This document shows, in pieces, positions 3,279 to 29,498 of a stretch of 64,000 nucleotides of DNA. The DNA lies in IMG/VR virus record IMGVR_UViG_3300028025_004808, positions 6,179 to 70,178 of that record; one strand, written 5' to 3'. Below the pieces are notes generated by a model. It searched no databases. It was given only the letters and a program-made list of their open reading frames with translations, and was not told the DNA's origin. The stretch is from a virus. Numbering within the stretch: the first letter of the stretch is position 1; every line of letters starts with the position of its first letter. The translations under genes were made by a program, and so were the position numbers.

Positions 3279-3522
3279 TTGATTTCCCCATAAGAGCATT
3301 CATTTCGTTCTTCATTCTCATACCTTCTGGCGTATTAGGGTCAAGGTCTGGTCTGTCTTCGCCAAAAACTGCTTTGTAGGCTTCACGCAAAGGAGCATCT
3401 CCACCAAGTGTTGATGCAAGGACTTGAAAGTCTGTTATTTTTTGGGCAAAAGCATCAATGGCTTTTTTTGACTTATTAATTGCTTCTTCTTCAGGACTGC
3501 CTGGCTCTGCATCGTGAAGCAT
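3271..3522 (-). CDS. Hypothetical protein (83 aa)
   Basis: Start and stop overlap the neighbouring genes in the operon. Confidence 0.6.
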   Translation of the reverse strand: MLHDAEPGSPEEEAINKSKKAIDAFAQKITDFQVLASTLGGDAPLREAYKAVFGEDRPDLDPNTPEGMRMKNEMNALMGKSNG

Positions 3523-4490: not shown

Positions 4491-4496
4491 ATATAG

Positions 4497-4537
4497 CAAA
4501 AACCCCGCCCGTACCGTTTAAAGGCACAGGCGGGGTT
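4497..4537 (-). terminator. Intrinsic terminator after the major capsid gene
   Basis: AACCCCGCC...GGCGGGGTT stem followed by a T-run on the minus strand, 13 nt after the MCP stop. Confidence 0.85.
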
Positions 4538-6030: not shown

Positions 6031-6279
6031 TTATTCCGAAGGTTTCTGCAATTTGGAAATTGACGGACCAAAAAGTTTTTCAATCTTTTTATCCAACTTG
6101 TTGTCAACTAAACCGTATAAATCTTCAATTAAATCATTAATAGTTGGCTTAATTTCTTCTAAATCTTCGGCTTTTTCATCTTCGCCCGTAGCCCTTAAAA
6201 CAGCAATAAAGCGTTCAAGTTCGTCAATCTTTATTTTTTTTATTTCGGAAGGCGTTGCTTTTGAATTTAAAGATGTCAT
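6031..6279 (-). CDS. Small helical charged protein (candidate immunity protein/partner of the 1283-aa protein)
   Basis: ATGA overlap with the upstream stop. GAGGA RBS. Function inferred from position only. Confidence 0.6.
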   Translation of the reverse strand: MTSLNSKATPSEIKKIKIDELERFIAVLRATGEDEKAEDLEEIKPTINDLIEDLYGLVDNKLDKKIEKLFGPSISKLQKPSE

Positions 6280-9200
6280 CTGTTCCTCAAAACTTTAATT
6301 TCTATTCCAGGATAAGCAACTCTAATAATATTTAACCACTGAGACCTACTCATTGACGGGAATAAGTCTTCAAGCAAATCAATGGTTGACTCGTCTATCT
6401 CTGCAATGTTGTTATTAGGTGCTGCTCTTTCTGCTGGAGTTGATGTAATCATTCTTCCAACTTCTGCTATGAGTTCATGAACACCATATCTGGCATACTC
6501 AGAATATTTTTGTGCAATTTTATCAAGGATTCCACCTCTATCCCTGAGTATTTCTGAAATCATATCATCTCCGAACAAGAGTTCGTCTATTAGGGGCTCT
6601 AGATTTTTTATAAACTCTTCTCTATTTTCTTGCAATTGTTTAGTTATCTCATCTATTGCTGTTTTTCTTACTTTTGCATCGCTCAAGCCAGGATTATTTT
6701 TTTTGACTAGTTGCTGTACGGCGCTCAAAACTTTTTCTTCTAAATATTTAGGCATATCTTTGTCTTCAAAAATTTTTCTGACAACTGACTCTGGGTCTTG
6801 CACTAAGTCTGTCAAGCCTTGAAGGTAAGTATCAACTCTTGTTTCAAATGTTTTTTGGTCAGAGCCCATCAATAGCGCATCTAAATAGTGGAACCATTCG
6901 TGTCTTAATGTTTGGTTAACGGTATCAAATTTTTTGTTTTCAAAAGTTGAGCCTATTGCTTCGTGACTACCGCTCTTTACATGGTCTTTACTTACTACAA
7001 TTAGAGCGCCAAACGGAGTGTGATAAGCAGAAACGCCTTCCATTGGATTGCCATCCGTCATGCCATTTCCGTTAATGAACATTGGAAGCCCAAACTCTTC
7101 AACAAGTTGTCTAAATGCTTCGTTATTTGTTAGTTCGTCTTCTAAAACTTTTCTTAAGTTCTTTTGTTCTCGTGGGTCATATTTGGCATTTTTTAATAAA
7201 GTTTTTAAATAAACTTCCGAGTTTTCTCTATCAGAAATTATTGAATACTTCAAAGCAGGTATTGTTTCAAAAAGTCTTAAAATAAAATCATCATCTGTTT
7301 CTGATTGCGATTTAATCGGAACAAAATTATTTACTACTTTTCTAATACCTTCCGGTGTATCAAGTTGACCTTTTAGTGAAAAATTAGGTATTTCAAGCGG
7401 TCTTCTTGGACCTTCTTTTCTACCAATACCCTCTGTCGGTAAGTATCTCATTCCACTAGATACTTTTGCAAGTTTTTTTATTACATAATTAAGTGAGTTT
7501 TTAGGAGAACCGTCTTGTCTTTTATTAAGTCTGTCACTTAGTTTTGCGATGAAAGCAACTACGCGGGCTTCTATCTTTTTGTCAATGTCTTCTATTTCGG
7601 ATATAGATGTTTTAGCGCCTGTTCCTGGAGTTTTGCCAAACGGGCTAGACGAACCAATGGCACCTGGATTAGCAGGTGGAAGCGCCCCAGGAATTCCAGG
7701 AGGCGGAACTGCTGCTCCAGGGATTCCAGGTGGAGGAACTGGTCCTGGAGTTACAGGCTGAGGTTGTATTGGTGATGGCTTGTTTTGCGGTTTATTTTGT
7801 GGTGGCGTATATCTTCCACCTTTTTTAGGCTTTGAACTAGAAGCAAGACCCATGAACTCGTCTGATTCTTTTAATGCTTCACGTTCTCCATCGGAAAGAG
7901 TATTTCCTTCTCTTGGCTTAGGAGATAGTTTGTTTCCATTCATAAACTCATCAAGTTTTGTTTGGTCCAAGATGTCAAGTTTTCCATCTTTAAAAGATGC
8001 AATCAGTCTTGGTGGCTTGCCTTGTTCTACATTGTTGTCCCATATATAGAACTCATCTACTTCGCCATTTGATACAGCATCAGAAACCATTCGCGGAATA
8101 GAGCGAGCAAAGTGCCCTGTCTGGTCTGGAATCTTTCTTCCATCTCTTTGTTGGCGTTCTTTGATTCTCTTTGATGCTTCTTCTGCGGGAACATGCACCC
8201 AGTGGGCAACAACCCTGTCTCCGTTTTGTCTAGCCTGAGCAATTATTGCTCGCTGTCTTGTTGAGCCAGCGCCAGTAGCAACAAGGTCCATGCCTTCTTT
8301 GCGTGCGTCATCCATTGTTCTTTGAGCAGACCGAAGCGATTCGTCATGAACCATTGGAGCACCAGCACCATCGTTGTATCCAGTTAATCCAAGTTTAATA
8401 AAATCTGGGTCAACATGGGCTGCTTCGTTTCTGCTGGGGACAATTCCCTGAACAACAAGATGTTCGTCAAGAACTGTTGATTTGCCACCACCAGTAGTTC
8501 CGCCTACTAGATAAGTAGTTCTCTGTTTTTTGTTTTTGTTTGAAGGCTTTACCAATCCTCTGATGATTTCACCCATCTTGCGCCCACCAAGGTTTCTAAA
8601 TGGGTTTGTCTCAGATGCGTCTGGGTTCTCAAGACCTTCAATTTTGATTGGCTCTGCTTTTATCGGTTTTGAAACAGAAGCAAACCCGCGCGCACTTCTA
8701 GAAGAGGCACCAAAGTTTTCTATTGGAGTACCAGTAAGTTTTTCGCGTTGCTTTGGCGTTGTTGCGTCAAACCATTTTCCTACAGACGAAACAGAAAGAG
8801 TAGAGATGGGTTTTTCAACATCTTGAGGCTTTGGAACACCGGGAACATTTGGTCTTTCAAAAGCGCTTCCGTCTTGAAGCAAGCCATCTCCGTCACCGTC
8901 TTCTGCTCTAGGGTCAAATCTTTGAGTGATTGTTCTTGCAGAAAATCTTGATACGCCAGATATTTTTGGACCAATCGCTTTACCGATTATTTCCTCTACA
9001 AGACTCTTTTTTCTTTTCTTTAATTCATTTGAAAGAATAGTTCTAACTACTTTTTGAGTTCTTTTTTCTTGATTGTTTCTGCCAAGTGCAGTCATACCAG
9101 TCAGGTTGTTGTAATCAGTAAGATTTGTACATGGCATCCATACAGTTTTTCCTGATTTAGAAACTCTTCTACTGATTCCGATACATCCAAGTTGTTGTGC

Positions 9201-10127
9201 TCTTCTTCTTGCAGATTCAATATCGATAAATACGTCAGTGTCGTTGTCTCTAGGCGAATATGCAGCCTGAGCGCTCTTTGCAGACATTCTGCTGGGTGAG
9301 GTGCGACCTTGTGGTAAATATTGTGCAGCCTGTTCTTTGGACAGGTTCATTGCATAAGCATCAGCATCCTTTGGATTAGAAAACTTTCCTAGATGCTCTC
9401 CAGTCCTTTTATAGTGCTTCCACGCTTCTCTGTCGCTAACAATCTTTCCAGTACCATCTTGGTTTCTGATAACAGTAGGAATCAAAACTGTTAATTTGCC
9501 TTCAGTCATGCTGATTGAACGAACAGTACTGATTGAACCGTCTTTGTTTTTAACTACAGGTCGATTGTTTAGGTTTATGTTGCCTTTTACTACTTGCCCT
9601 TTAGGCGGTTTTTTATTAGTGTTTTTTGCTGGCACTCGTGTGTCATCAGGTCCGCCAGGGGTGGATGCAAAATAACCATCTCCGTCTCCATCTCTTTGCT
9701 TGCCTGAAGAACTTCCCGCCTGCTCTGAGCCTATAGTTTGTCCTAAACTCTTTGTAGAAACTCCTGAAGATGTTGAGGCACCATAAGTAATCGGCGGTAT
9801 TGAACCACCATTTACCAGGTTTACTGAATTCCTTGGGGACACAAGACCGCCATTGGGAAGTGAATCAACTCCAAAAACTCTTCTTTCGCGAAGTTTTTCC
9901 CAGCCGTCTCTTCTTTTTCTTCCCTTTTTCTTTCTTCTACCAGAGCGCTCTTTCATGTCGTCCAGCGTCATGCGAGATTTAACAGACTCAGGTTGAGTAA
10001 TTGTTAAGTATTGCTTAATTGACGAACACGGAATCCATTCGCCATGAGAGTTTTGGTGCGCGCCAAAGCATCCAATTTGCGCCGCTTGCTTAATTGCAAG
10101 CAGTTTGGATACAAACCCGTTTTCCAC
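6276..10127 (-). CDS. 1283-aa multidomain head-cargo protein: zeta-toxin-like P-loop kinase plus C-terminal HEXXH metallopeptidase
   Basis: Zeta family: GGTTGGGKST, HVDPDFIK, VHDES, R..R....GRKIP, WDNN. Zincin: TLRHEWFHYLD...SEYA....HELIAE. Also two DGDGDG motifs, a GNINLNNRP domain and two GCxG...PC motifs. Confidence 0.8.
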   Translation of the reverse strand: MENGFVSKLLAIKQAAQIGCFGAHQNSHGEWIPCSSIKQYLTITQPESVKSRMTLDDMKERSGRRKKKGRKRRDGWEKLRERRVFGVDSLPNGGLVSPRNSVNLVNGGSIPPITYGASTSSGVSTKSLGQTIGSEQAGSSSGKQRDGDGDGYFASTPGGPDDTRVPAKNTNKKPPKGQVVKGNINLNNRPVVKNKDGSISTVRSISMTEGKLTVLIPTVIRNQDGTGKIVSDREAWKHYKRTGEHLGKFSNPKDADAYAMNLSKEQAAQYLPQGRTSPSRMSAKSAQAAYSPRDNDTDVFIDIESARRRAQQLGCIGISRRVSKSGKTVWMPCTNLTDYNNLTGMTALGRNNQEKRTQKVVRTILSNELKKRKKSLVEEIIGKAIGPKISGVSRFSARTITQRFDPRAEDGDGDGLLQDGSAFERPNVPGVPKPQDVEKPISTLSVSSVGKWFDATTPKQREKLTGTPIENFGASSRSARGFASVSKPIKAEPIKIEGLENPDASETNPFRNLGGRKMGEIIRGLVKPSNKNKKQRTTYLVGGTTGGGKSTVLDEHLVVQGIVPSRNEAAHVDPDFIKLGLTGYNDGAGAPMVHDESLRSAQRTMDDARKEGMDLVATGAGSTRQRAIIAQARQNGDRVVAHWVHVPAEEASKRIKERQQRDGRKIPDQTGHFARSIPRMVSDAVSNGEVDEFYIWDNNVEQGKPPRLIASFKDGKLDILDQTKLDEFMNGNKLSPKPREGNTLSDGEREALKESDEFMGLASSSKPKKGGRYTPPQNKPQNKPSPIQPQPVTPGPVPPPGIPGAAVPPPGIPGALPPANPGAIGSSSPFGKTPGTGAKTSISEIEDIDKKIEARVVAFIAKLSDRLNKRQDGSPKNSLNYVIKKLAKVSSGMRYLPTEGIGRKEGPRRPLEIPNFSLKGQLDTPEGIRKVVNNFVPIKSQSETDDDFILRLFETIPALKYSIISDRENSEVYLKTLLKNAKYDPREQKNLRKVLEDELTNNEAFRQLVEEFGLPMFINGNGMTDGNPMEGVSAYHTPFGALIVVSKDHVKSGSHEAIGSTFENKKFDTVNQTLRHEWFHYLDALLMGSDQKTFETRVDTYLQGLTDLVQDPESVVRKIFEDKDMPKYLEEKVLSAVQQLVKKNNPGLSDAKVRKTAIDEITKQLQENREEFIKNLEPLIDELLFGDDMISEILRDRGGILDKIAQKYSEYARYGVHELIAEVGRMITSTPAERAAPNNNIAEIDESTIDLLEDLFPSMSRSQWLNIIRVAYPGIEIKVLRNR

Positions 10128-10132
10128 CGTAG

Positions 10133-10468
10133 TTAGAAAATTCCAGTTGGAAGGTCGCCGTCATCCATAGGGTCAGCATTTTCACGACCCTCTAATTTAA
10201 GAACTGCTTTTTGGGCTTCTTCTGGATTGTCGGCATATCTCTTCTGATACAAACGAGCCTCATCAAGGTCATCTGTCCACTTAGCGTCTACCGTAGAAAA
10301 CATGCGGTCGTAAGCATTTTCTTCTTTTGCATTTGCAAGAGCGAGTATTCTCTCTGTCTCTTTTTGAACATCTTTTTTAAATTCTTCTCTCTTTTTAAGA
10401 GAAGTAGTAAATGGTGGCCAATCAAGAATAAGTGAATACTCTTTGTGTTTTAGCATGAACTCTTCCAC
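10133..10468 (-). CDS. Hypothetical acidic protein (111 aa)
   Basis: Tightly packed between two giant ORFs on the same strand. Has a TVDAK|W segment. Confidence 0.65.
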   Translation of the reverse strand: MEEFMLKHKEYSLILDWPPFTTSLKKREEFKKDVQKETERILALANAKEENAYDRMFSTVDAKWTDDLDEARLYQKRYADNPEEAQKAVLKLEGRENADPMDDGDLPTGIF

Positions 10469-10470
10469 TA

Positions 10471-13400
10471 TTAACTCGCCTTCTGGGTTGCGTAGATTTC
10501 TTTCATTCTATCCGCAGTCATTGCTTCGTCAACAATGGCCAGTGCGCCTCTGTTGAACCATACTATTGGTGAGTTGCCTTCATGGTCTACGCCGTCATAT
10601 CCATAAATCATGGCTGCATAGTGTTCGTCTTTTGACGTAATTGACTCCATGTACTTGATTGCAGCCCATAATTCCTGCCTCATGGCTGGAGGTGCTGTTT
10701 CCATGTATTTAAAGAAGTTTGAAGCCAACTGTCCTGCTTCCGTAGACCAAAGTGGGTCTCCATCGGCAAGCGCTTTAGAAATTGCAGCCTTTAGTTCTTT
10801 GACCAAATCCTGGGGGTCAATGTCTTCTGCACTCTGAGTGCCTCCACCGATTCCACGAAGTGCTTTGTGTATTTCACCCCACATTTTTCCGTGCTCTGCT
10901 CGGAGTTTTCCTGCTTCTGAAATTGTCAAAACTCTTGAATCTGGGGAAATAAGAGCAAGCGTTCCCTGGTTGTAGGCAAGATATCCATCCCATCCAGTTC
11001 CTGGTCTAGACCAGTATTCTCCAGGACCATAAACAGCACCACCTTCACCAGTGATGAATCTTTCTGTGTCTTCAATGTAATCTTTAATCCATCCGATTGC
11101 ACCTGACTCATTGTCTGCTGGTGGTGGAGGGGTTCCGTGACCACGCTGAATTACCTTCCAGCCTTGACCAGCAAGGTATTCGGCGTCCGCTTCAGTAATC
11201 GGTGTAGCAAGAGCGTTGTACCCCTGAACAGTCCATACGTTTCCTAGTTCCTTACCAGCGTTCTGACCCTTTTGTTCTTGAAGTAGTTCAAGTGCTCTTG
11301 GGTCGTCTTTCCCTCTGAAAAGGACTGCAAGTTTTTGAATGCCCTTTTCGTCAACTGTTGGAACTCCGCCTTTTCCTGTTCCGAAAACTGTTGGGTTAGC
11401 GGTTCTGGTCTGGTCAATACTCTTATTGACATCAGCCTCGCTTGGTCCGCCCTTAAGCCTACGCTTGATTCTTCTTCCAGTTCTTGCAAGTGCTCGTCTG
11501 GCTCTTTCTCTTGCACCAGGTGCGCCTGGTCTTTCTTCACCAAGACGACGAACGGTACCTCTTTTTTGTCTGCGAAGTTCTCTCTTGCGACGAGCCGCTT
11601 CAGCATTATCAAAAATTCTGTCAGAGAAATCCTTAAGTTTGCTGCTCTTTTTTGCGCCAATCAATGAACGCTTTTTTCCTGCCTGTGCTTCTTCAAAACC
11701 TGTGAAGTAAGAAGATTCAGCATTAAGGTCAAGTTGCGGTTTTGTTTTAGGGTCATCAAAAGGACTTACGAATGGAGATTCTTCGCCCTTCTTTGGCTTT
11801 GATGAAATACCAGCAGAATGTGTTTTTCCAATTGCTGCTCTTCTTGATGTAGTGGTGAGATGTTCAACAAGACTCCAGTCGTCTCTTTCGGACATCGCAT
11901 CAAAAACCATCAAATCTTCTGCTGCGGAAGTAAACTCTAATTTTTCTTTTTGAAGTTTCTTTAATTGATTTTGCGCTGATTTAATTTGTTTGTCATCATC
12001 ACCTGGCGTAAGGGAAGATATTTGTTTTTCAAGAGTACTAATTTCACCATCAATTTGTCTTGTTATGCTGTCAACGAGTCTTCTGTATGAAGTAAGTGCT
12101 TCACCAGAAATTCTTGAATCTTTTGTTAATGGCTTCCCGTCAGCATCAGTCTTTGTAACGCCTCTGCCTTTTTGACCGACAAATGTTCCCCACCATGTTC
12201 CAGTACCAGTGTCGTCAGGAATTGCTTTAACCCATTCCTGAATTTGCTCATAACGCTTCTTGAGGTTTTCTTTAACAATTTCTTTTTGCTTGTCATCAAG
12301 GGTCTCGTGAAACTGACCGTCAGTGTCTTTCATCTTGTCAACACCAGGGCGGCGTCTAACAACCGCCTTGCCAGAGCGTGATGCAAAGCCTTCAACCTGA
12401 CGCTGAGTTCTGGCTTCAGAAACTCTTTTTGAAACACCACGAGCCTGTGCTGCTGGTTTTGCAGCATCAGCAGCCTGTTCAGGCTTTACTCTTCTTTGAC
12501 CACCAGGTTTGCGTGCTGCTGGCTTATTGTCTCCTGAGCCGCCTGCACGACGGGCAGCCCTACTTCCAGAAGAGCCTGAGTTTGCTCTATTGAGGTCTCT
12601 CCAGGCTCTAGTTGCTGCGCCTGTATCAACAGAGCCACCAGATGCACGGTCGTTTACGCCAGGTATTGCTGGTCGCTGGAATGGTGTTCCTTCTTGAACA
12701 ATGCCGTCGCCGTCGCCGTCCCAAGCCTTAGGGTCAAAGGACGCTGCTGCTGTACGACCTGCTCTTCTGGCAATTCTTGAACCTGAACCAATGCTTTCGC
12801 CTAGTCCTTTTTCGGAGATTCCGTTTTCAAGGCTCTTTGTTTCCAGTTCAGAAGCACTACCCATTTTTGTGCGCTCAATACCATTTGAGATAATGGCTGA
12901 TTTAAGACGCATTCCAATTCTTCTTTCAGAAGAACGACCAACCGCCGTATCAACACGCTGTCTTAAAGATTTGTTTTGCTCGCTATCAGGTGCTGCGTTA
13001 TACATCCACTTATCGAAGTTGAAAGCGTAATTGTTTGCTCTTGCTTCGTGAAGGAAACTTCCTTCTTTAATACTGCTGCGAACATGGAGGCATTTGTAGG
13101 AAACTGCTGCAGCATATTGATAAGCGGTAAAGTGACCAATAGGTGTGTCAACAACTGCTGGAACTCTTGATTCGGACTTAACTCTTACTGAACCAGCATG
13201 TCTGTATGCTTTTGATTTTACAAAATTAGATGCAGAACTCTCTCCGTAACCAAATGTTGTAATAAGAGATTTGATATCTGTGTCTGAAACGGTTTTAAAT
13301 GGTCCTTGAATTATTCCTGCTGGAATTTGTGACTCTTCAAGAGTCTTTGACTCAACAGAGTTTGCCCACTGTGCCCACTCTTTGCCTTGTCCGTCATAGC

Positions 13401-13488
13401 CGTAGTACTTGACGCCATATTCGTCTTGTACGGCAATAGCAAACTTCTCATTGCGTAGTGCGTCAAATAGAGTAGAAATTTGCTTCAT
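10471..13488 (-). CDS. 1005-aa head-cargo protein with C-terminal ADP-ribosyltransferase-like domain
   Basis: C-terminal IQRGHG...GEGGAVYGPGEYW...GYDGVD...IVWFNRGALAIV resembles ART-like tails of phage head-morphogenesis (MuF) proteins. Contains FDPKAWDGDGDGIVQEGTPFQRP. Confidence 0.65.
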   Translation of the reverse strand: MKQISTLFDALRNEKFAIAVQDEYGVKYYGYDGQGKEWAQWANSVESKTLEESQIPAGIIQGPFKTVSDTDIKSLITTFGYGESSASNFVKSKAYRHAGSVRVKSESRVPAVVDTPIGHFTAYQYAAAVSYKCLHVRSSIKEGSFLHEARANNYAFNFDKWMYNAAPDSEQNKSLRQRVDTAVGRSSERRIGMRLKSAIISNGIERTKMGSASELETKSLENGISEKGLGESIGSGSRIARRAGRTAAASFDPKAWDGDGDGIVQEGTPFQRPAIPGVNDRASGGSVDTGAATRAWRDLNRANSGSSGSRAARRAGGSGDNKPAARKPGGQRRVKPEQAADAAKPAAQARGVSKRVSEARTQRQVEGFASRSGKAVVRRRPGVDKMKDTDGQFHETLDDKQKEIVKENLKKRYEQIQEWVKAIPDDTGTGTWWGTFVGQKGRGVTKTDADGKPLTKDSRISGEALTSYRRLVDSITRQIDGEISTLEKQISSLTPGDDDKQIKSAQNQLKKLQKEKLEFTSAAEDLMVFDAMSERDDWSLVEHLTTTSRRAAIGKTHSAGISSKPKKGEESPFVSPFDDPKTKPQLDLNAESSYFTGFEEAQAGKKRSLIGAKKSSKLKDFSDRIFDNAEAARRKRELRRQKRGTVRRLGEERPGAPGARERARRALARTGRRIKRRLKGGPSEADVNKSIDQTRTANPTVFGTGKGGVPTVDEKGIQKLAVLFRGKDDPRALELLQEQKGQNAGKELGNVWTVQGYNALATPITEADAEYLAGQGWKVIQRGHGTPPPPADNESGAIGWIKDYIEDTERFITGEGGAVYGPGEYWSRPGTGWDGYLAYNQGTLALISPDSRVLTISEAGKLRAEHGKMWGEIHKALRGIGGGTQSAEDIDPQDLVKELKAAISKALADGDPLWSTEAGQLASNFFKYMETAPPAMRQELWAAIKYMESITSKDEHYAAMIYGYDGVDHEGNSPIVWFNRGALAIVDEAMTADRMKEIYATQKAS

Positions 13489-15488: not shown

Positions 15489-16108
15489 TAATCTTTTTCT
15501 GTTCCGTCGTAATCGACTTCCATTGTTCCATCTTCTGATTCGCCTTCTTGCGCCCAGTTTTTGGTATCTGAAAGTATTTTGTAAAAATCTTGTTCATCGG
15601 ATGCAAAAGTTTTTGCTACCAATGATGCGTATTTTTCATCATCTTCAGTGACTACATCATCATAAGCATCATCGTTCATTGATGCGGACTTGCCGTCTGG
15701 TTTTGCTATGTTCGCCATTCTTTTATCAAAATCTGCATCGGAAAACAATGAACCGTTAATTACATTTTTGATTTTTCTGCGACAGTTCTTCATTCCTGGG
15801 TGATGGCACCCTTCGTTTGGCCATAGACCAGTCGTCTCATGGTGCAGCCATGCACAGATGTTGTTCAATGGATACAGTTCTGGGTGGTCAGCAAGAATGA
15901 CTTTACATCTTCTGAAGCCACCAGGCTTTTTCATGATTGGGCGCCAGTAACGAAGGAGGCGCTCAAGGTTTCCTCTTCTTGGCCCACGACCCTTAAGTAC
16001 GTCGCCAGTAAATTTTTCCTGAGGAATTCCTATTATGGCGTCTTGCGGCGCTTTTTGTTCAAAGACAAAACCCTTGATTGTTCCCTTATATTCACCCCAT
16101 GTGGTCAT
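15488..16108 (-). CDS. Head-associated protein with Cys/His-rich domain
   Basis: GNLERLLRYW...PGGFRRC...LADH...ICAWLHHETTGLWP resembles a module I recall from actinophage head-maturation genes. Acidic C-terminus follows GK|S. Confidence 0.6.
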   Translation of the reverse strand: MTTWGEYKGTIKGFVFEQKAPQDAIIGIPQEKFTGDVLKGRGPRRGNLERLLRYWRPIMKKPGGFRRCKVILADHPELYPLNNICAWLHHETTGLWPNEGCHHPGMKNCRRKIKNVINGSLFSDADFDKRMANIAKPDGKSASMNDDAYDDVVTEDDEKYASLVAKTFASDEQDFYKILSDTKNWAQEGESEDGTMEVDYDGTEKD

Positions 16109-16545
16109 TTTGTCTCCATTTGGATTGGAAGGGTTTTCATTGTTTTTGCCCTAACTATTGATGTGTTTTGAGTTTCTAAAAGCGATTTAAATTCAGAAAT
16201 TCTGTAGTTGATGGATTTAGCCTTCATCTTTGATTTTAGAACATCAGAGACAATTTGAACACCAGATAACATATGCTCTGATATTTTCTGAGTTTTATTT
16301 ACAAAAACCCTGTTCCATCTATCTTCATCAGGTCCTTCTGGGTCTTCATTGTCCCACAGAAATTTATGAAAATTAGTTGATTTAATTGGCTTTAAAGTAT
16401 TTGACTTAGATGCCGTTTTCCAAAAGTTTACAACCTTTGAAGTTTCTCCATCAGACACAACGCCATCTGATTCTTTGTTTTTTGCGTCAATAATATAATA
16501 AAACTTTTTTTCTGAGTCTATTGTCCCAACAAATACGGCTTTCAT
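16105..16545 (-). CDS. Hypothetical protein (146 aa)
   Basis: ATGA overlaps at both ends. Several K|S sites near the C-terminus. Confidence 0.65.
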   Translation of the reverse strand: MKAVFVGTIDSEKKFYYIIDAKNKESDGVVSDGETSKVVNFWKTASKSNTLKPIKSTNFHKFLWDNEDPEGPDEDRWNRVFVNKTQKISEHMLSGVQIVSDVLKSKMKAKSINYRISEFKSLLETQNTSIVRAKTMKTLPIQMETK

Positions 16546-22169: not shown

Positions 22170-22185
22170 ACGGGCCTACGCTTTC

Positions 22186-23586
22186 TTAGATACTCGGGTC
22201 GGTGTTTCTAAACTCCTCCTCAAGGAGTTCAAATTCAATGAGCGAAGATTTGATGTCATCTGGAAGGTCTGCTGATTTTTCTGAACCGCTTACCCAGTTG
22301 CTTGGAATAAGTTTTTCTTCACCAAGAGCCTTTGCACGCTTCATGATGTGACGCTTTGCTGCTTCCTTGTCGCTTGCACGACCATATGCTGAAATAGCAT
22401 TCTTGAGGTCAGATGCATTAGCAATTGGGAAAGAGCCGTCTGGAAGAGCGGTCCCCTCTTTAGCCATTTGGTTTCTAACATCTTCGGTGAAAGCACGCTT
22501 GAGTGCAATTTCTGCTGCTTCTGCTTCAATTGCTTCTGCTTCTTCTGGTTCGTACTTGTCGTATCCAAGAACTTCACCGTCAAGAGAAACGAAAACGTCG
22601 TATGACTTTCCATCAAGTCCTTCAATTTCAACTGCGTAAGCGTCAAAGCCTTCAAAAATGTCTGGCTCAACTGCTACAACATCGCCCTGAATTGACTTGA
22701 CAGCAATCTCTGCAGCCTCATGAAGGTCAATAACCATGATTGAGTCAAGAGCAGACTTTTGCTCAAAAGCGCTGTCGTCCAACTTGTGGAAGCCGAGAAC
22801 TTCTGCGGTTGTTCCGTCAACAAAAACTTCTACTGAGCGACCATCTTTAGTGTGTACATCAACAACAAACATGTCTGCATCTGAAGAATAACCAGAATCA
22901 AGAACTGTTCCATTGAACATCTTTTCGGCAATTCCCTCAACAGAAAGAAGACCAGGCATTCCCTTTTCGGCAACACAACCACCAGGGCAGTCGTCACAAA
23001 CGGAAGAACCGCCTGGGTAAACTTTTCTTTCAATTGCGCACATGTATGCGTTTCTGCCAAGTTCTGCAGACTTTGCACCCATTGTTGCAAGACGACGCTT
23101 GCGTGCTGACTCAAGGTCGTCACTCATGCCGTACATCTTCATTTCTTCGTCATCGGCTTCTTCATCGCCCATGTCTTCTTCGTCGTCTTCTTCTTCGTCA
23201 TCTTCGCCTGGCATTCCCATACCAACTGCTTTTCTTGACTTCTTCATCGGCATTTCTGCGTCTTCGTCTTCTTCTTCGTCCATAGGCATGCCCATACCCA
23301 TGCCCTTTTTGCCCTGACCCATGACAGATACTTCGTCGTCTTCTTCATCATCAGTGATGAGGTCTTGGTTCATGTTTCTTCCTGGAATTGGCTTCTTGGA
23401 ACCCATTTCATATCCCTTTTCGTCGTATTCTTCGACTGGAACCATCTTCATTTCAATGGGCATTGCACCGCACTTGCCACATACTTTTGCGCCAGGCGTG
23501 TACCCGCACTCAGTAGCATTTGCGCCCTTTGCACACTTCAGGACATTGCCGTCTGCATCAACGCTGACTTCAACTTTTTCTGCCAT
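22186..23586 (-). CDS. 466-aa acidic head protein with Cys clusters, PepSY-like repeats and DUF6582-like C-terminus (possible scaffold or protease regulator)
   Basis: EAAEIAVKSIQGDVVAVE...AYAVEI...GKSYDVFVSLDGEVL is PepSY-like, with a second copy upstream. ALPDGSFPIANASDLKNAISAYGRA...KRHIMKRAKALG. Poly-D/E tracts. CAGGAG RBS. Confidence 0.7.
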   Translation of the reverse strand: MAEKVEVSVDADGNVLKCAKGANATECGYTPGAKVCGKCGAMPIEMKMVPVEEYDEKGYEMGSKKPIPGRNMNQDLITDDEEDDEVSVMGQGKKGMGMGMPMDEEEDEDAEMPMKKSRKAVGMGMPGEDDEEEDDEEDMGDEEADDEEMKMYGMSDDLESARKRRLATMGAKSAELGRNAYMCAIERKVYPGGSSVCDDCPGGCVAEKGMPGLLSVEGIAEKMFNGTVLDSGYSSDADMFVVDVHTKDGRSVEVFVDGTTAEVLGFHKLDDSAFEQKSALDSIMVIDLHEAAEIAVKSIQGDVVAVEPDIFEGFDAYAVEIEGLDGKSYDVFVSLDGEVLGYDKYEPEEAEAIEAEAAEIALKRAFTEDVRNQMAKEGTALPDGSFPIANASDLKNAISAYGRASDKEAAKRHIMKRAKALGEEKLIPSNWVSGSEKSADLPDDIKSSLIEFELLEEEFRNTDPSI

Positions 23587-23649
23587 TATTTACTCCTGTT
23601 GTTGTAAGTACGGACGCAGTGTCAATACCAAAATTAATTAGTGTCTCTA

Positions 23650-23678
23650 AGTATAACTTAGCACGCTAGTTCCGTCAG
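23650..23678 (-). promoter_or_regulatory. Putative sigma70-like promoter CTGACG-N17-TATACT with imperfect palindrome in spacer
   Basis: Intergenic, upstream of the 466-aa gene. Spacer region reads AACTAGC-GT-GCTAAGTT. Confidence 0.4.
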
Positions 23679-23690
23679 TTATGACCACTA

Positions 23691-26600
23691 TTATGCTTCG
23701 GGAACTATATTTATGGTTCTACTTTGTCCGCGTGAATTTGTTGCTGTTCGTGTTGTGTCTGTTATTGCGTTTGTCTTTTTATCAATAAATGTTGACTTGG
23801 CTGCACCAGCAACCATCTCAATAAGTTTTGAATACCAAGCGATTCTTTTTTCTCCGCCGTCAGCAAGTTGAGTGTCAAGAGCAAACATAAGACCATCAAG
23901 AATCTGGTCTGCCTCTTCAGCGGTAAAGTAAATACTTCCCACATTTGTTCTTCTGCTTCCAGTTTTTCCTGCTTCGTCTCTGGAAATTAATTCAGACAGT
24001 TTTCTGAGACCAGCAATTGCTCTCTTATCCCCGTCTTTGGTTGCTCTTTTTATTTCTTTGTCTAGAGATGATTGAACATCTTTAAAGAATGTCGCCTCAT
24101 CTGTAATCATTGTCTTTCCGCCAGCAGAGGTTGAAGCAAAACCTCTTGTCCCAGGCTTGCCAGTACCGTTAAGTTTTTTAAGGTCTTTTTGGATGTCTTG
24201 TGCAAGGTTTATGTTAAATTTTTTGCTTGTTCCACCAGTTGCCGAAGCAAAATTAATTTGACTGCTTGACGGTTTTTTGCCTCCGATAATCCACTCATCT
24301 TCAGAATAGGCAGTTCTTGTTCCCAAAAGGGTTTTAAGAATCTTTCTTGCTGCTGCCAAGTTGGCTCTTTCGTCTGGAGTTAACTGTTCGTCTTCAAATG
24401 CGCTGACATAGTCATCTAAAACTTCAATTGTTCTATCAAGGCTCCTGATGGTGAAGTCATATCCATTTTCTTGCAAAGATGTCGTAACTTCATCCCACAA
24501 GTCTCTGTGCTCGTTTATTTCAGAATCGCTTGAATCAATTCTTGATGACGAGGCGTCAATTGCCTCAAGAAACTTATCAAGTCTTGATTCTCTTTCTGTT
24601 TTTGCATCCTGAGCGTTTGAAGACTTTTTAATCTTGGGGGCTTTTGGTTCTGAAGATGTTTCGCGTTTTGGTTTAGCCGCTGCACCTTCTGTTGGTTCTC
24701 TAGGAACGCCCATTCTTTCAATTGTTCTTTGTTCTTCTCTTCTTGCAGCGAGTTCTGCTCTTCTCGCAGCAGGAGACATTTCTGCAAGTTCTTCTTTGTC
24801 CATTTGGTCGCCAAGGTCGGCAAGAAGTTTTCTATAAGCAACGCGAGACATTTCGCTTCCGCTATCTGGGTTGCCTTGAGTCAAAGCCCATTGAAATTTT
24901 TCGTCTGTTGTAAGTTCATCCCAATTATCTGGCTTTATTTCATCAAATGTTTTGCCAGCAAATTGAGTTTCTGCACCAACTTCAGTACCTGCTCTATTTT
25001 TTTCTCCTTCTCGTCTTGCTCTTCCTGGAGCAAGATTTCCACCTGGAACCATTTCGCCAACTCCACGGGCTCTTCTTGCTCCGCCTCCACGCTCGTCATC
25101 ACCAGGACCATCAATATTTGATGCAAATCCAACCCTTGAAGCGCTTACTGAACGAGCGGGTTTCTTTGTTAGTGAAGCAAATGGTTTTGCTTTAGCACCA
25201 GAAGCATCGCTTCGTGATGTATCAGACGGGTTGTCAACCAACTTTCCTGTTGACCAGTGGTCGACAATCCAGTCTCTTCTAGCAATAAGAATTTGAGCAA
25301 GCCTGTCTCCATCTTCTTTGTCGCTAATTTGCTGGGAAACCAATTTCTTGATGTCGTCATCTGTTACTTGAGAAAGTTCTTTTACTTGTCTCGCAACCTC
25401 TGAAGGTTCAATGTCTTTGTAGTAAGCCTTGGAGACAGCGGTCTGAACAGGCTGTCCAGAACGTGTTACGCCATTTATTAAGTTTTCAACTTCGTCAACT
25501 TTAGGACCAAACGGTGGGTTTGTCTTTAAACCACTGTATCTCTGCGCTCTAAATATCAAGCCACCACCAGAGTCGGCCATTACTGCCTCTCCGTTAGGAC
25601 CCTGGACAATGTTTGACATATTGCCAGTGCCGTCCCAGTTTGCAAGCCATGCATTAGCAATAAGGCTTCTTTGAACTGATGCTTTAAACTTTGAGTCTTT
25701 AGACATCTGAGAATGACTTACTTCTCTTATTCTGTCATCCCATTCACTGACTCTTTGAAGTTTTCCGTTATGAACACCACGGTTGTAGTCAATGGTCGGA
25801 ACACCAAGAAGTTGATACAGTTTGCTTGTCAAAATTTCTGTTTCTCCGCGGAATTCTTCGCCAGACCTAGAATGCTTTACATAGTAAACCTTTCCAGTTT
25901 TTGGGTCCATATATCTTCCTGCTTCGTTAAGACCTCCTGCACCACCGACTTTTTTCCAGCCAGTAGTTGTGTGGACGTAGGGAAGTGGTCCTGCTCCAAA
26001 AGTTAATGCGTCTCTAAATCCTGCAGTTGGCTGACTTGTGTTTGATGCAAAGCGGCGTGGTCCTCCACTTCCTGGTCCCATGTTTGAATACATGGTGCGA
26101 AGCGCTTTCCATCTAGAAGCCGACATTTGTCCGCTGTTGCTATCATGCTCTCGGATAATTTCTTGAGCAACACGAAGACCTTTTTGCTGACGAGCCCACG
26201 CAACGTATTGTCTTTGCTGTAGTTCGGTCATATCTGTTGGTGCGCCATTATTGGCACGTTTCCCAGAAGAGGCAAACCCCTTTGATTTCTTGGGATTGGC
26301 TATTTCGTTGATGTCGTATTTTCCATCAAGAGATTCTGCTGCTTGATGCAATACACCGTAAATATCAGAAGAAACAACACCGTTGTCAAAAGAATCTTCA
26401 ATTGCAGCAGCAATATCATCAAACTGCTGTGGTGTTACTTCGAATTTTCCACCTTTTGACTCTTCAAGAATCTTCTTCATTGCGAGCAAAGGCTGACGGT
26501 TTTTTGTATTGTCAAGAAGCATTCCAACTTCTTCATTAAGAACACCAATTGTGTCATCATCAAGGGTGATTGAGAGGTTCTTTTGAGGAGTAACTGTTCC

Positions 26601-29498
26601 GTCTTTGGTAATTTTCTTTCTTGGCGTTTTTCCAGATGAAGCAAGTCCTGGATTTACACGAGCAAGACCTTCACTCTCTTCAAGAATTCTGCGAGCATCT
26701 TCTCTTGAAACAACACCAGTAATTTCTCCACTTTCAAGACCTTCTGCTATTCCTTCATTAATTACGGTGTTTAGTTCGTCTAATTCATCCTGACTAATAT
26801 CGCCTTGCTCAACGTTGCGTCCGCCGTTAGGTACGCCTGTTAGTTGTTCAATTTCTTCGTCTGACAAACCAAATTCTCTTAATTTTTCAAATACAGCATT
26901 ATCGCGTTCTGCTCTCATATTGCGTGCTTCGGTAGCATCAACATTTCCCCGTTCATCTCTTTGTATGCCCGTAGGTCTTACAATTCGATTATTGCCACTG
27001 CCGCTATTAGAAGCAAAAACACGAATGTTTTCTTTTTCAATTTTGCCTCTATCTGCTCTGTATTTAGAATCTCTACGAGTCATATTTAGGTAGTCAATTA
27101 AATCGCCACCAGTGATTTTTTCATCACCAAATTCTTTAGCAAGAGAGACGATTAAGGGGTTTGCACCGTCTTTTGACGCGCCTTCGCGCAATGCATCAGC
27201 AAGTTCATTTACTAATTCTTCAGGCTCAATTGACGGGTCGTTTTCTATAATTCCATCAATTGCTTTTTCTAATTCGTAATTAAAATCTTCAAGAGACATT
27301 TTCCCATCAATAATTTTTTCAGAATCGCTACGTAATAGGTTTACGCCATCCTGTAAACGCAATGTTTCTTCAAGGTCTTCTGGTTCTCCGCCTTCTCTTA
27401 GCGATGTCATCAAAAGTTGTCTGTCTAATCTTGCTGATTCTTTTGCTTCTTCTATTGTTCTGTAAGAATCAGGTTCACGTCTTTTCTCCCAAAAAGACTT
27501 AGAACGAGAAGTTAATTGTTTAAAAACGTCATCAAGGTCATTGCTTGCGTTATCTACAATTTCTTTAATTTCTTCTATTTCACTGTCGGTTCCTGTTTTT
27601 TTAACAGAGTCAACATGCAGGTCAAGCATTTTCTGAATGGAAAATGCCATGTCATCCATAAAATCTTCAATTTTTTCTTGTGAAGAAAATTGTTCAATAA
27701 TTTTTTCGTCAGAAAGCATTTCCGCTAATCGTTTTCTTGCATTAGATACAGACTTACCAACACTGTCTTTAAGTTTTTCATCAGTAAGGTTTGTTAATAC
27801 TTCTTTTGCCCCATCAATAATTTTTGAAGAGTCTCCCTTGCGCCCTACGGCAGACGCTGCAGCGTCTTCCATGCGTTTAACTAAAGATTTTGGCAATTCG
27901 TTTTTTGAAACAACTTCTCCGCTTACGGATTGTGCTGCTGGGACAACGCCTGATTGACTGGCAAATCCCTCTGTTGCTCTTCTTTTGTTTACTTTTCCTC
28001 TGGTTGAAAAGTCATTAACACCAGGAATTGCAGGGCGTTGGAAGGGCGTTCCTTCCTGAACGATTCCGTCATTATCTCCGTCCCATGCGTTCGGGTCGAA
28101 GTTTGCGGAAGCAGCCCTACCGGCTGCCCTTACTTTTCCCGGGCTACCACCGATACTTCTACCGATTCCCTTCTGGGCGTTATCTATAGCCTCAACCAGG
28201 TCTTTTGTTATGCCTGACGTAATTAGGATTCCATCTTCTGTAACTACGGATTCAACCCTGTGGTAATCAAAAATTGGGTCAAGCAATGATTTGGTGTTAA
28301 ACGCTTCTTCTAGTTTAACGGGAATCAGATAACTCTTTGTTTCAAGGTCTTCTTTTTCTGCAGAAGAAATTACATCTTGAAGGTTTTCAAGAATTGCTTT
28401 TAATTTTGAAAGATTTTTCTTGTTGATTGTCTTGCCAACTTTTTCATCAATCTCTTCAGCAATTAAATCTTCTAATTGCTCAATCTGAGATGCAAGGTCT
28501 GATTTTTCGTCAGATTTCGGCATAATTTCTCCATAGCCCTGCTGATATCCAGGCTTTACCTGCATTGGCATTGATGGCATCTGTGATGGAACGACAATGC
28601 GTGAACCGCTATTTCCGCTATTAGTTACCTCTGGCTTACCAAACATAAATGTTGAGTAATTGTCTGGAGTGTGATAACCGATTCTATAAACGGTTGGCGC
28701 TCCATTGGGAGAGAACTTCATGAATACAGCAGTACTCTCAGTTGCTTCAATCAATTTAATTTTTGAGTTAGTTCTTTCAGAAATTTCTCTTTCAAGGCGC
28801 TGACGCTGTTCTCCACCAAGTGGGCGAGCCAGGCCTTCAGCAAAAATTGGCTTTTCTGATTCGTAATCGTCGTCATCGTCTTCCCGAATTACAATCATGT
28901 TTGGTTTTTGCGGCATTTGTCCCATCATATGATGAGGACCCATCATGCCCCAGCCTTTTTCTGATTCAGCCAAAGTGATGGCATCGTCAGACTTGACGGA
29001 TATTGTTCCCGTCAATTGATTGGCTCCATGAAGAACTGGAGAGACTTCGTAAAGTTCTACTTCTTTAAGAACATTGGCTTGCATGTTTGGGTCAAAGATT
29101 GCATCAAGAGTCTTATATCCAATTGACCATTCTTGTTCTTGCCCAAAGAAAGCAACATTTGCAAACGCTTCGCGACCCTTTTCGGAGTTCAGGTTGAACT
29201 GAACTCTTGCGTAAAGACCACCAATGCCAGCCTTAAGCATCTTGGACGGAAGCCTTCTATCGCCTGGAGCAACTTCGTAAATCTCTAGAACTTTACCGAT
29301 TGGGTCGTTCCAGTTGTGTCCCCAAACCACTCTTGGCTTGCGTCTTTGAAGGCTTTTTGCAAAAGCGCCAGATATAAGAACATCACCCACGGAGTCTTTA
29401 TTCCCAATGCCAGCAACGAAGCACTCAACAATTCCCTGTGCTTCATCAATATTAAACTGTCCAGGCATGGCCTTGAACTCAATGTTGGTGCTTGCCAT
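23691..29498 (-). CDS. HK97-family prohead protease (N-terminal ~170 aa) fused to ~1750-aa multidomain extension including a PI3/4-kinase/HipA-like domain
   Basis: S78 protease: GNKDSVGDVLISGAF, WGHNWNDPIGK, EWSIGY, LYEVSPVLHGAN. Kinase: YYVK, E.EILTSKLYQLLGVP, NAWLANWD...NI, MADSGGGLIFRAQ. Lies between portal and MCP. Confidence 0.9.
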   Translation of the reverse strand: MASTNIEFKAMPGQFNIDEAQGIVECFVAGIGNKDSVGDVLISGAFAKSLQRRKPRVVWGHNWNDPIGKVLEIYEVAPGDRRLPSKMLKAGIGGLYARVQFNLNSEKGREAFANVAFFGQEQEWSIGYKTLDAIFDPNMQANVLKEVELYEVSPVLHGANQLTGTISVKSDDAITLAESEKGWGMMGPHHMMGQMPQKPNMIVIREDDDDDYESEKPIFAEGLARPLGGEQRQRLEREISERTNSKIKLIEATESTAVFMKFSPNGAPTVYRIGYHTPDNYSTFMFGKPEVTNSGNSGSRIVVPSQMPSMPMQVKPGYQQGYGEIMPKSDEKSDLASQIEQLEDLIAEEIDEKVGKTINKKNLSKLKAILENLQDVISSAEKEDLETKSYLIPVKLEEAFNTKSLLDPIFDYHRVESVVTEDGILITSGITKDLVEAIDNAQKGIGRSIGGSPGKVRAAGRAASANFDPNAWDGDNDGIVQEGTPFQRPAIPGVNDFSTRGKVNKRRATEGFASQSGVVPAAQSVSGEVVSKNELPKSLVKRMEDAAASAVGRKGDSSKIIDGAKEVLTNLTDEKLKDSVGKSVSNARKRLAEMLSDEKIIEQFSSQEKIEDFMDDMAFSIQKMLDLHVDSVKKTGTDSEIEEIKEIVDNASNDLDDVFKQLTSRSKSFWEKRREPDSYRTIEEAKESARLDRQLLMTSLREGGEPEDLEETLRLQDGVNLLRSDSEKIIDGKMSLEDFNYELEKAIDGIIENDPSIEPEELVNELADALREGASKDGANPLIVSLAKEFGDEKITGGDLIDYLNMTRRDSKYRADRGKIEKENIRVFASNSGSGNNRIVRPTGIQRDERGNVDATEARNMRAERDNAVFEKLREFGLSDEEIEQLTGVPNGGRNVEQGDISQDELDELNTVINEGIAEGLESGEITGVVSREDARRILEESEGLARVNPGLASSGKTPRKKITKDGTVTPQKNLSITLDDDTIGVLNEEVGMLLDNTKNRQPLLAMKKILEESKGGKFEVTPQQFDDIAAAIEDSFDNGVVSSDIYGVLHQAAESLDGKYDINEIANPKKSKGFASSGKRANNGAPTDMTELQQRQYVAWARQQKGLRVAQEIIREHDSNSGQMSASRWKALRTMYSNMGPGSGGPRRFASNTSQPTAGFRDALTFGAGPLPYVHTTTGWKKVGGAGGLNEAGRYMDPKTGKVYYVKHSRSGEEFRGETEILTSKLYQLLGVPTIDYNRGVHNGKLQRVSEWDDRIREVSHSQMSKDSKFKASVQRSLIANAWLANWDGTGNMSNIVQGPNGEAVMADSGGGLIFRAQRYSGLKTNPPFGPKVDEVENLINGVTRSGQPVQTAVSKAYYKDIEPSEVARQVKELSQVTDDDIKKLVSQQISDKEDGDRLAQILIARRDWIVDHWSTGKLVDNPSDTSRSDASGAKAKPFASLTKKPARSVSASRVGFASNIDGPGDDERGGGARRARGVGEMVPGGNLAPGRARREGEKNRAGTEVGAETQFAGKTFDEIKPDNWDELTTDEKFQWALTQGNPDSGSEMSRVAYRKLLADLGDQMDKEELAEMSPAARRAELAARREEQRTIERMGVPREPTEGAAAKPKRETSSEPKAPKIKKSSNAQDAKTERESRLDKFLEAIDASSSRIDSSDSEINEHRDLWDEVTTSLQENGYDFTIRSLDRTIEVLDDYVSAFEDEQLTPDERANLAAARKILKTLLGTRTAYSEDEWIIGGKKPSSSQINFASATGGTSKKFNINLAQDIQKDLKKLNGTGKPGTRGFASTSAGGKTMITDEATFFKDVQSSLDKEIKRATKDGDKRAIAGLRKLSELISRDEAGKTGSRRTNVGSIYFTAEEADQILDGLMFALDTQLADGGEKRIAWYSKLIEMVAGAAKSTFIDKKTNAITDTTRTATNSRGQSRTINIVPEA

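Follow-up and report, generated by a model that had tools for sequence, protein, structure and literature searches.

What is a phage doing with some 23 kb of genes, four of them encoding giant proteins, between its portal and capsid genes? We addressed this question in a 64,000-base stretch of viral DNA (hereafter the window: bases 6179-70178 of the 70,178-base IMG/VR record IMGVR_UViG_3300028025_004808, 47% complete by CheckV). All open reading frames (ORFs) of the block lie on the minus strand and follow the order portal, a 1935-amino-acid (aa) fusion with an N-terminal S78 prohead protease domain, ORFs of 466, 1875, 146, 206, 667, 1005, 111, 1283 and 82 aa, and capsid; from the fusion to the 82-aa ORF, neighbours either overlap by 1-4 bases or stand 2-104 bases apart. 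An initial annotation, made from the letters alone, had described this locus as a portal-protease-capsid order expanded by a ~1750-aa extension on the protease and nine further ORFs, all of which are borne out, with PF04860, PF04586 and PF05065 matching the three landmark proteins. The ORFs were aligned and searched by Pfam, PHROGs, PDB profiles, Foldseek, the Atlas and BFVD; we label the window G000 and the relatives fetched for comparison G001-G010.

The four giants (1935, 1875, 1005 and 1283 aa) are strings of unrelated modules, further helical modules included, and their linkers share a short motif. As supported by sequence comparison, this motif behaves like a selected processing signal: it is genome-specific, changes in concert and sits in linkers predicted to be disordered. 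We regard it as an evenly balanced proposition that the giants are polyvalent effector polyproteins, cut at the linker signal by a phage protease, carried in the virion and injected. Made as strings of unrelated modules joined by signal-bearing disordered linkers, the giants would be cut at the signal by a phage-encoded protease, putatively the fused S78 prohead protease, and the separate products would be carried in the particle and reach the host together with the DNA. The cutting, the identity of the cutter, the packaging, the ejection and the effect on the host are steps that we infer.

A genome-specific motif in the linkers

The motif of the window is G-[F/L/M]-A-S, and it is found in the 1935-, 1875-, 1005- and 1283-aa proteins. 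Nine copies of the form [GRVPN]-[FL]-A-S lie in the fusion (hydrophobic residue at 512, 828, 952, 1075, 1150, 1440, 1458, 1750 and 1787), where an LAS at residue 335 (SDLASQ) lacks the motif context and was not counted. The other three giants carry the forms G-[FLM]-A-S or Y-F-A-S, with linker sites at residues 1027 (GMAS) and 1151 (GFAS) of the 1875-aa protein, 368 (GFAS) of the 1005-aa protein, and 153, 482 and 761 of the 1283-aa protein. The motif is absent from the 466-, 146-, 667-, 111- and 82-aa proteins and from the portal and capsid of the window; the 206-aa protein has one TFAS. The short shared motifs reported in the initial annotation exceed chance by a wide margin: GFAS occurs 7 times in the block against a shuffle mean of 0.13 (maximum 3 in 1000 shuffles), and the 7587 residues of the block contain 11 copies of G[FLM]AS, the tape measure protein two, and the 11,866 residues of all other ORFs none.

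A capsid relative is encoded by 330 of 332 candidate IMG/VR stretches. Our locus survey comprises the best 80 loci, each reaching at most 10 kb upstream of the capsid gene, and the full portal-to-capsid stretch was compared in ten relatives with capsid identities of 71-93%. Synteny, which the initial annotation had proposed checking, is kept in all ten: portal, S78 fusion, 466-like, 1875-like, 146, 206, 667, 1005-like, 111, 1283-like, capsid (the 466-like gene of G001 and G002 was located by tblastn). Within this order, the S78 fusion ranges from 789 to 3563 aa, the 1875-like protein from 1635 to 2491 aa and the 1283-like protein from 221 to 3687 aa. The stretch measures 23-25 kb in eight relatives and ~35-36 kb in two, and occupies ~15-26% of the genome in the four relatives rated 100% complete by CheckV (137-169 kb; three with terminal repeats). 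Each genome writes the motif in its own way:

G000 (window): GFAS, 7 copies
G002, G001: GFSS, 5 and 6 copies
G003: GLAS, 15 copies
G004: R-GMAS-R, 13 copies
G005: GLRS, 15 copies, and GMRS, 4 copies
G007: GMRS, 8 copies, and GFRS, 3 copies
G010, G008: [KR]-LSSG-[KR], 12 and 9 copies
G009: ISGRMG, 13-15 copies
G006: [IV]TGAM, 7-11 copies

The genome-by-motif table is near-diagonal. Within its block, a genome's own variant ranks at or near the top among tetrapeptides (5-15 copies across genomes, against shuffle means of 0.11-0.29 and maxima of 2-4 in 1000 shuffles), and portal, capsid and downstream ORFs hold 0-1 copies of the variants. Orthologous sites shift with the variant of the genome, as in QRQVEGFASRSG, QRQVDGLASRSS and QQVERGMASRAE. 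GFAS itself is not common to the relatives, each of which has its own variant. The 12-base words encoding the copies are nearly all different (15 words for 15 GLRS sites, for example), which argues for selection on the peptide and not for a DNA repeat. In an AlphaFold2 model of fusion residues 1150-1935 (786 residues, 11-row alignment; mean predicted local distance difference test (pLDDT) score 68.8), all five sites fall between folded domains, at pLDDT below 50. Concerted rewriting at 10-20 sites per genome, in unrelated proteins, in disordered linkers and under peptide-level selection, points to one specific reader, for which a protease is the obvious candidate.

Two virion proteins outside the cargo bear on this signal. 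The capsid protein contains a variable stretch at residues 89-96 (window 5624-5647), after a conserved AAAAG and before KSIG..F. This junction reads VKSLGSS in the window and K-G-L-G/D in the GLAS, GMAS and GLRS genomes (KGLGSQ in G005). The GMRS/GFRS relatives, like further GLRS-type loci, have EG[LF]REA there, and the LSSG class has [QH]L[ST]SRE. The last form occurs in 27 of the 80 loci, and LSSG-type words are among the top three tetrapeptides of the upstream 10-kb ORFs in 15 of these 27 loci versus none of the other 53. The window's tape measure protein, for its part, carries TFAS (F at residue 41), GLAS at 722 and GFAS at 767, near the N-terminus and in a central Gly/Ser-rich stretch, the same two regions as in homologues. 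Exact own-variant tetrapeptides occur two to three times in the tape measure protein of six of ten genomes, the window included (P<=0.012 each, 5000 shuffles); three more have near-variants (GFRS, KFSSGR, GRMG) and one has none. A precedent for processing of such a protein comes from T5 and lambda, whose tape measure proteins are cut while the tail assembles (bioRxiv 10.1101/2022.09.20.507954).

Modules and companions of the giant proteins

The genes and recognised domains are arranged as follows (window coordinates):

29594..31627, minus: portal, 677 aa (PF04860, 2.2e-48), the upstream border; 57-80% identity in ten relatives
23691..29498, minus: protease polyprotein, 1935 aa, with N-terminal S78, cassette, linker-separated modules and kinase-like domain
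29001..29432, minus: S78 (HK97-type) prohead serine protease domain of the fusion, residues 23-166 (PF04586, 8.7e-11)
28008..28181, minus: shared cassette in the fusion (alignment of 11 copies)
25242..25982, minus: kinase-like domain of the fusion (HipA/CtkA/PI3-4-kinase-like), residues ~1173-1419 (AlphaFold2 and Foldseek)
22186..23586, minus: 466-aa acidic protein with a conserved C-terminal half, without the linker motif
16542..22169, minus: 1875-aa giant protein with an R-C-P-P-G..RFTNERGE.C element, AHExxH and two linker sites
20394-20408, minus: AHExxH of the 1875-aa protein, residues 588-592, a zincin-type motif
16105..16545, minus: 146-aa conserved protein, without the motif; matches no known family
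15488..16108, minus: 206-aa conserved Cys/His-rich protein, without a G-preceded motif
13485..15488, minus: 667-aa protein, without the motif; matches no known family; among the most widely conserved of the block
10471..13488, minus: 1005-aa protein, whose N-terminal part holds the cassette, with GFAS at 368, a helical middle and a C-terminal alpha/beta domain
10474-11256, minus: alpha/beta domain of the 1005-aa protein, residues ~745-1005, a possible PolyVal-type ADP-ribosyltransferase (ART)
10133..10468, minus: 111-aa small conserved protein, without the motif
6276..10127, minus: 1283-aa protein with DUF3721, cassette, zeta-toxin-like P-loop kinase, Pro-rich linker and zincin-type RHEWFHYLD domain
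8118-8546, minus: zeta-toxin-like kinase of the 1283-aa protein, residues 528-670 (PF06414)
6888-6902, minus: HEWFH of the 1283-aa protein, a zincin-type motif
6031..6279, minus: 82-aa ORF, poorly conserved; homologue in 1 of 80 loci
4550..5911, minus: HK97-fold major capsid protein with an N-terminal delta region (PF05065, 1.3e-43; match begins at residue 172)
45029..49945, plus: tape measure protein, 1638 aa, outside the block; carries the linker motif

The S78 match (42.7 bits versus a Pfam cut-off of 21; phrog_80, 1.1e-28) is confined to residues 23-166 of the fusion, which leaves the extension of ~1750 aa. The domain is N-terminal in all 11 genomes and 70-90% identical between the window and its relatives. 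Its motifs VVWGHNWN (GH61NWN) and EQEWSIGY (WS125IGY) are kept in all 11, with invariant surroundings, and by analogy we take His61 and Ser125 to be the catalytic pair. The domain ends in S-V-K-S (GTISVKSDD; fusion residues ~176-180, window 28959-28970 region), of which close variants are found in 11 of 11 genomes, and an identical SVKS lies at the capsid junction (YSVKSLG) in the window's clade. From its sequence, SVKS is possibly an HK97-like K|S cut site, separate from the linker motif. A DUF6321-like protein (270 aa) is encoded by its own gene downstream of the capsid gene in the window (2487-3299, minus); in G006, G007 and G009 a DUF6321-like C-terminal domain (62-84% identity) is fused directly behind the S78 domain.

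Further along the fusion lies a segment with a YYVK lysine, E.E, AWLANWD..N..N and ID.GG, all invariant in six of six homologues. Residues 1150-1440 have no Pfam or PDB sequence-profile match. The kinase part of the AlphaFold2 model scores a pLDDT of 75-97, and Foldseek ranks CtkA, a kinase of H. pylori, first among its matches (3akl_A, E 3.4e-4, TMt 0.56), with numerous protein kinases, PI3K and HipT behind it; among named Atlas clusters, the nearest are PI3_PI4_kinase, HipA_2 and LepB_N. The model thus supports a HipA/CtkA/PI3-4-kinase-like fold, and the kinase-like domain suspected from the letters alone is upheld at the level of fold. This module changes place, being part of the protease fusion in the window, G001 and G002 and forming the C-end of the 1005-like protein in G003-G005. 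Two further homologues, L015:6188-6829 and L017:2248-2889, each hold one in-frame stop codon, for which they were left out of the kinase alignment; the stop could reflect a decaying module, recoding or a sequencing error.

The 1283-aa protein is predicted to contain a zeta toxin/AAA_33 P-loop kinase. This assignment is supported by the PF06414 Zeta_toxin match at residues 528-670 (1.7e-11, 44.3 bits versus a cut-off of 22.3), in line with the zeta-like domain of the initial annotation, and the translation contains the Walker A sequence GGTTGGGKST. The same region matches phrog_16619, a 'minor head protein' family (1.5e-9). At the N-terminus, DUF3721 (PF12518, 1.8e-11; residues 5-36) is above the Pfam cut-off; a second copy at residues ~305-334 is below threshold (E 0.0021).

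Two giants bear HEXXH motifs. In the 1283-aa protein, RHEWFHYLD and a downstream HELIAE are invariant in five of five aligned homologues; five loci have this C-terminal zincin module and others are without it. In the 1875-aa protein, AHExxHxxQ is invariant in five of five aligned homologues. A Glu-bearing helix downstream of the HEXXH motifs shows the same invariance (5/5). An HExxH stands at a similar position in the 1875-like protein of all 11 genomes, and the 260 residues around it are 16-47% identical to those of the window. The HEXXH regions have no Pfam or PDB profile match to a zincin, and the 1875-aa protein has no Pfam or PDB profile match of any kind; of the two HEXXH domains in the initial annotation, the motifs and their invariance stand, and a zincin fold found no match in these profiles. 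As a side observation, an R-C-P-x-G..RFT..R...C element is common to the 1875- and 667-aa proteins, and GKFRCPPGTPAAN.FTNERGE.CF is invariant in five of five 1875-like proteins.

The C-terminal domain of the 1005-aa protein may be a PolyVal-type ART, to which two weak leads point: the nearest named Atlas cluster is PF18760 ART-PolyVal (score 0.92, 12 of 30 matches), and a Foldseek search of BFVD returns 'PolyVal ADP-ribosyltransferase' at E 0.04 (TMt 0.34) and 0.069. The VIA wide fold search of the 1005-aa model was filled by helical hairpins at model residues 97-166 and barely probed the alpha/beta domain.

A cassette, K-G-I-G..SIG..R.ARRAGR..FDPNAWDGD.DGIVQEGTPFQRPAIPGV, is common to the 1935-, 1005- and 1283-aa proteins. 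Its 55-residue consensus, K-[GS]-[IL]-G..IG..R.ARRAGR..FDPNAWDGD.DG..Q.G..F.RP, is kept in relatives, and 11 paralogous and orthologous copies (alignment A7) share 14 invariant columns, making it a candidate loading or address element. Across the block, Pfam searches of ten cut segments at E<=1 gave chance-level matches only, PDB sequence-profile searches with alignments A1, A2, A4 and A5 gave nothing meaningful, and the PHROGs matches were the protease, the one 'minor head protein' family and two weak unknowns.

The remaining ORFs (466, 146, 206, 667, 111 and 82 aa) amount to about a fifth of the block by length, and none has a recognised enzyme domain. Homologues of block proteins are present in the 80 loci as follows: 1283-aa in 76, 667-aa in 53, 206-aa in 47 (at 54-88% identity), 146-aa in 33, 1005-aa in 32 and 111-aa in 23. 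The 466-aa protein has homologues in 14 loci at 49-75% identity and in all ten fetched blocks; its only Pfam match is sub-threshold, to PepSY, and it is possibly a scaffold or core protein. The 667-aa protein has 640 database relatives, and the 120 listed all lack a Pfam domain and are named no more specifically than 'hypothetical protein'. Homologues of the 146-, 206- and 667-aa proteins occur in most related loci and of the 466-aa protein in all ten blocks; these proteins look like head parts and not toxin cargo. Together with the 111-aa protein, they probably have a structural or loading role inside the head. The initial annotation, which took the whole ~23 kb for toxin cargo, overreached in this respect, since this fifth lacks both the motif and recognised enzyme domains.

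Around the block, the large terminase gene is divergently transcribed, and a baseplate J gene together with the 1638-aa tape measure gene indicates a contractile-tailed phage. No tRNA genes were found. Directly downstream of the capsid gene lies a gene for a 189-aa protein of the Asp/Asn beta-hydroxylase family (PF05118, 3.8e-17; 3930-4499, minus), with homologues in 29 of the 80 loci, and the plus-strand module contains a PAPS-reductase-family protein (PF01507, 1.7e-9; 37981-39126, plus), where the initial annotation proposed a DNA-modification cassette. At the nucleotide level, the block matches none of 50,697 records of isolated phages. By capsid, the closest isolates are Brevibacterium phage Cantare and Gordonia phages of the Gray/GMA6 type (46-49% identity), and by sequence the head genes are distantly related to those of actinobacteriophages. 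As a part of our overall model, and again with confidence divided equally for and against, we take the phage for a large uncultured myovirus and the block for the effector-and-core part of its head module.

Candidate readers of the motif

What might read the signal? The S78 protease is favoured by the similar sequences at the capsid delta-domain junction, and we also counted for it that it is fused to the protein richest in sites. In T4 and SPN3US, a short motif marks where the prohead protease cuts the capsid protein as well as numerous internal head proteins, which are ejected later (PMC7411985). We lean towards S78 by a slight edge only, the universally present zincin being nearly as likely. 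More tentatively, and short of even confidence, we propose that the lineage uses a private, fast-changing 'cut-here' code of 4-6 residues that is rewritten in concert and read by a co-evolving phage protease; in this joint reading, the signal would mark proteins expected to leave the virion, namely the tape measure protein and the polyproteins of the head cargo; the capsid junction matches it in part.

Several observations weigh against the main model, with S78 as cutter of the cargo. The S78 domain is 70-90% identical between genomes though the motifs differ at nearly every position, a poor fit with co-evolution of protease and motif. The tape measure protein carries the motif yet assembles outside the head. 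For the LSSG and G[LF]R classes, capsid junction and motif agree in three residues only, and the window's class shows a looser likeness; as the junction classes are clades, they represent few independent events. A conserved capsid site, QFGS/SFGT, was ruled out as motif-linked because it does not vary with the motif. Nor does every module junction have the motif: a plain basic linker connects kinase and 1005-like protein in G003-G005. On the side of the cargo, the C-terminal 638 residues of the 1005-aa protein find no PDB Foldseek match at E<=1e-3, with PARP appearing only at E ~3, and none of 13 homologues of the domain matches the Pfam ART families, so that the ART-like domain of the initial annotation is left with its Atlas and BFVD leads. 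Isolated phages yielded no match to either the 667-aa protein or the cassette, which leaves no cultured relative for a check. The choice of S78 as polyprotein cutter, already made in the initial annotation, is thus a tentative one, given its conservation in the face of differing motifs, the motif in the tape measure protein and a zincin-type motif in all 11 genomes.

The same cargo system could be served instead by the zincin-type domain of the 1875-like protein, acting before assembly or after ejection, with S78 confined to capsid maturation, perhaps at HK97-like V-K|S sites; this we consider rather unlikely, though a genuine possibility. Its HExxH is found in the giant protein of all 11 genomes, and the region around it, 16-47% identical as against 70-90% for S78, diverges on the motif's scale, although such fast divergence could just as well stem from an arms race in which host targets are contested. 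Of all features of the motif, its hydrophobic residue varies least, which would suit the preference of many zincins at P1'. A motif in the tape measure protein, which is no head component, speaks for such an enzyme, as do the SVKS at both the S78-domain end and the capsid junction of the window's clade and the proposal that zincin (MPTase) domains cut polyvalent proteins into working units (PMC5512222). The lack of a Pfam or PDB profile match to a zincin counts in the other direction, and so does the likeness to the cargo motif that the LSSG and G[LMF]RS clades show at their capsid junction, capsid maturation being the known task of prohead proteases. Cutting by a host enzyme seems highly improbable. 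In staphylococcal phage 80alpha, the host L27 protease Prp cuts capsid and scaffold between F and A, and the same motif occurs on a tail protein of another phage (PMC5744158); the F-A-S of the window resembles this site, and a cytoplasmic enzyme could reach both head and tail proteins. However, GLRS, LSSG, ISGRMG and ITGAM in close relatives are hard to square with a conserved housekeeping protease and a conserved substrate, and the phage has two candidate proteases of its own. The 80alpha F|A cut had also been considered as a precedent for S78 and was dropped, Prp being the enzyme that does the cutting (PMC5744158).

We give little credit to the idea that the motif is no cut site but some other conserved feature of the linkers, such as a docking site, a phosphorylation site or a hinge for threading long proteins through the tail, with the proteins staying whole. 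Every variant contains Ser or Thr and some genomes encode a kinase, but kinase homologues were not found in G006-G010, where motifs are present. Some module junctions lack the motif, and the virion RNA polymerase of phage N4 is packaged unprocessed (PMC5512222); against this, concerted change of up to 15 sites per genome suggests one specific reader, and short recurrent motifs in disordered linkers are cut sites in the head proteins of T4 and SPN3US (PMC7411985). It is similarly improbable that the giants are not virion cargo at all but late cytoplasmic, lysis-associated, tail or decoration proteins that happen to lie in the head cluster. Genes between portal and protease in Gordonia phage Gray and in Cantare are indeed annotated as lysin B, hydrolase-type 'minor tail proteins', RNA ligase and VIP2-like toxin. 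In our lineage, the portal-to-capsid position is kept in all ten relatives, the prohead protease itself carries one of the cargo strings, tape measure protein and capsid junction share the motif, and the zeta region matches a 'minor head protein' family, all of which argue for a place in the virion.

Relation to known systems and implications

The initial annotation knew of no description of such a system at this scale for an HK97 protease lineage, but large phage proteins with the same domain mix have been reported: the 'polyvalent proteins' of Iyer et al. 2017 (PMC5512222) combine zincin, ART, kinase and zeta-like domains and are predicted to be capsid-packaged, processed and injected. Like them, the proteins studied here are giants of a portal-terminase phage, lie among virion genes, have domains shuffled between relatives and join several unrelated catalytic domains in one polypeptide (S78 and a kinase fold; Zeta_toxin and an invariant HEXXH). 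Unlike them, the S78 domain is N-terminal in all 11 genomes, whereas the assemblin-like peptidase is, as that paper describes it, always C-terminal, and no Pfam 'LPD' or ART-PolyVal model matches the block proteins. No genome-specific linker motif and no link to the tape measure protein or the capsid junction was found in the passages of Iyer et al. 2017 compared here; the supplementary architecture lists of that paper may hold similar cases. Within the papers searched, neither this lineage nor a fusion of cargo to an N-terminal S78 domain is described. Relative to the polyvalent class, the features for which this search found no counterpart are the N-terminal S78 fusion, the conserved 23-36-kb unit with its motif-free companions, and a genome-specific motif that recurs in the tape measure protein and, in part, at the capsid junction.

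In T4 (IPI-III and Alt, cut by gp21) and SPN3US (gp245), one protease cuts capsid and internal proteins at a shared motif and the products are ejected, a likeness to our proposal, and T4/phiKZ-like ejection proteins are loaded by targeting peptides (PMC7411985). The motifs of gp21-type systems end in Glu, and their substrates are mostly single proteins with N-terminal propeptides, not multi-enzyme strings. Here, by contrast, an S78 protease is fused to the cargo, the motif is hydrophobic-small-Ser/Gly and varies between close relatives, and the system is known from its genes alone. With HK97 the phage shares the PF04586 protease family, the capsid fold and the N-terminal delta region, and the VK-SLGS of the window capsid presumably resembles the HK97 K|SLGS junction. 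HK97 has no packaged effector set, and its protease is small and stands alone; the C-terminal tail of that protease is said, in work of Duda and co-workers from 2013, to target it to the prohead.

The nearest isolate relatives by capsid (48%), portal (41-43%) and protease (38-39%) are Gordonia phage Gray (Bendigovirus) and Cantare. Both have a multi-gene insert in the head module (Gray 6739-18448, Cantare 6387-12118), located between the portal and a stand-alone, unfused protease and annotated with RNA ligase, a VIP2-like ADP-ribosyltransferase toxin, 970-1040-aa proteins, hydrolases and lysin B; a tblastn search of the cargo proteins against the two genomes matched only portal, protease and capsid. 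MuF-fused polymorphic toxins likewise tie toxin domains to a head protein for delivery, but no MuF family is listed for the block proteins (Pfam, E<=0.01).

The eleven genomes, with their matched proteases and site sets, offer natural swap experiments in their genome-specific variants, and Gray and Cantare are cultured systems suited to the question of head-packaged effectors. As a handle, the motif predicts domain boundaries in thousands of unannotated giant phage proteins and helps to pick candidate injected anti-defence or host-takeover enzymes. If the 'cut-here' code is real, 15-26% of a 137-169-kb genome would encode modular, shuffled, injected enzymes released from polyproteins, and switching the code could keep co-infecting phages from processing each other's proteins or evade host factors by which the site is mimicked or blocked. 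If the broader reading of the giants as injected polyproteins is true, a group of HK97-lineage phages abundant in metagenomes would deliver a large, changeable enzyme set (kinases, a zeta-like toxin, peptidases and perhaps an ADP-ribosyltransferase), extending the ejection-protein principle of T4 and phiKZ to another protease family.

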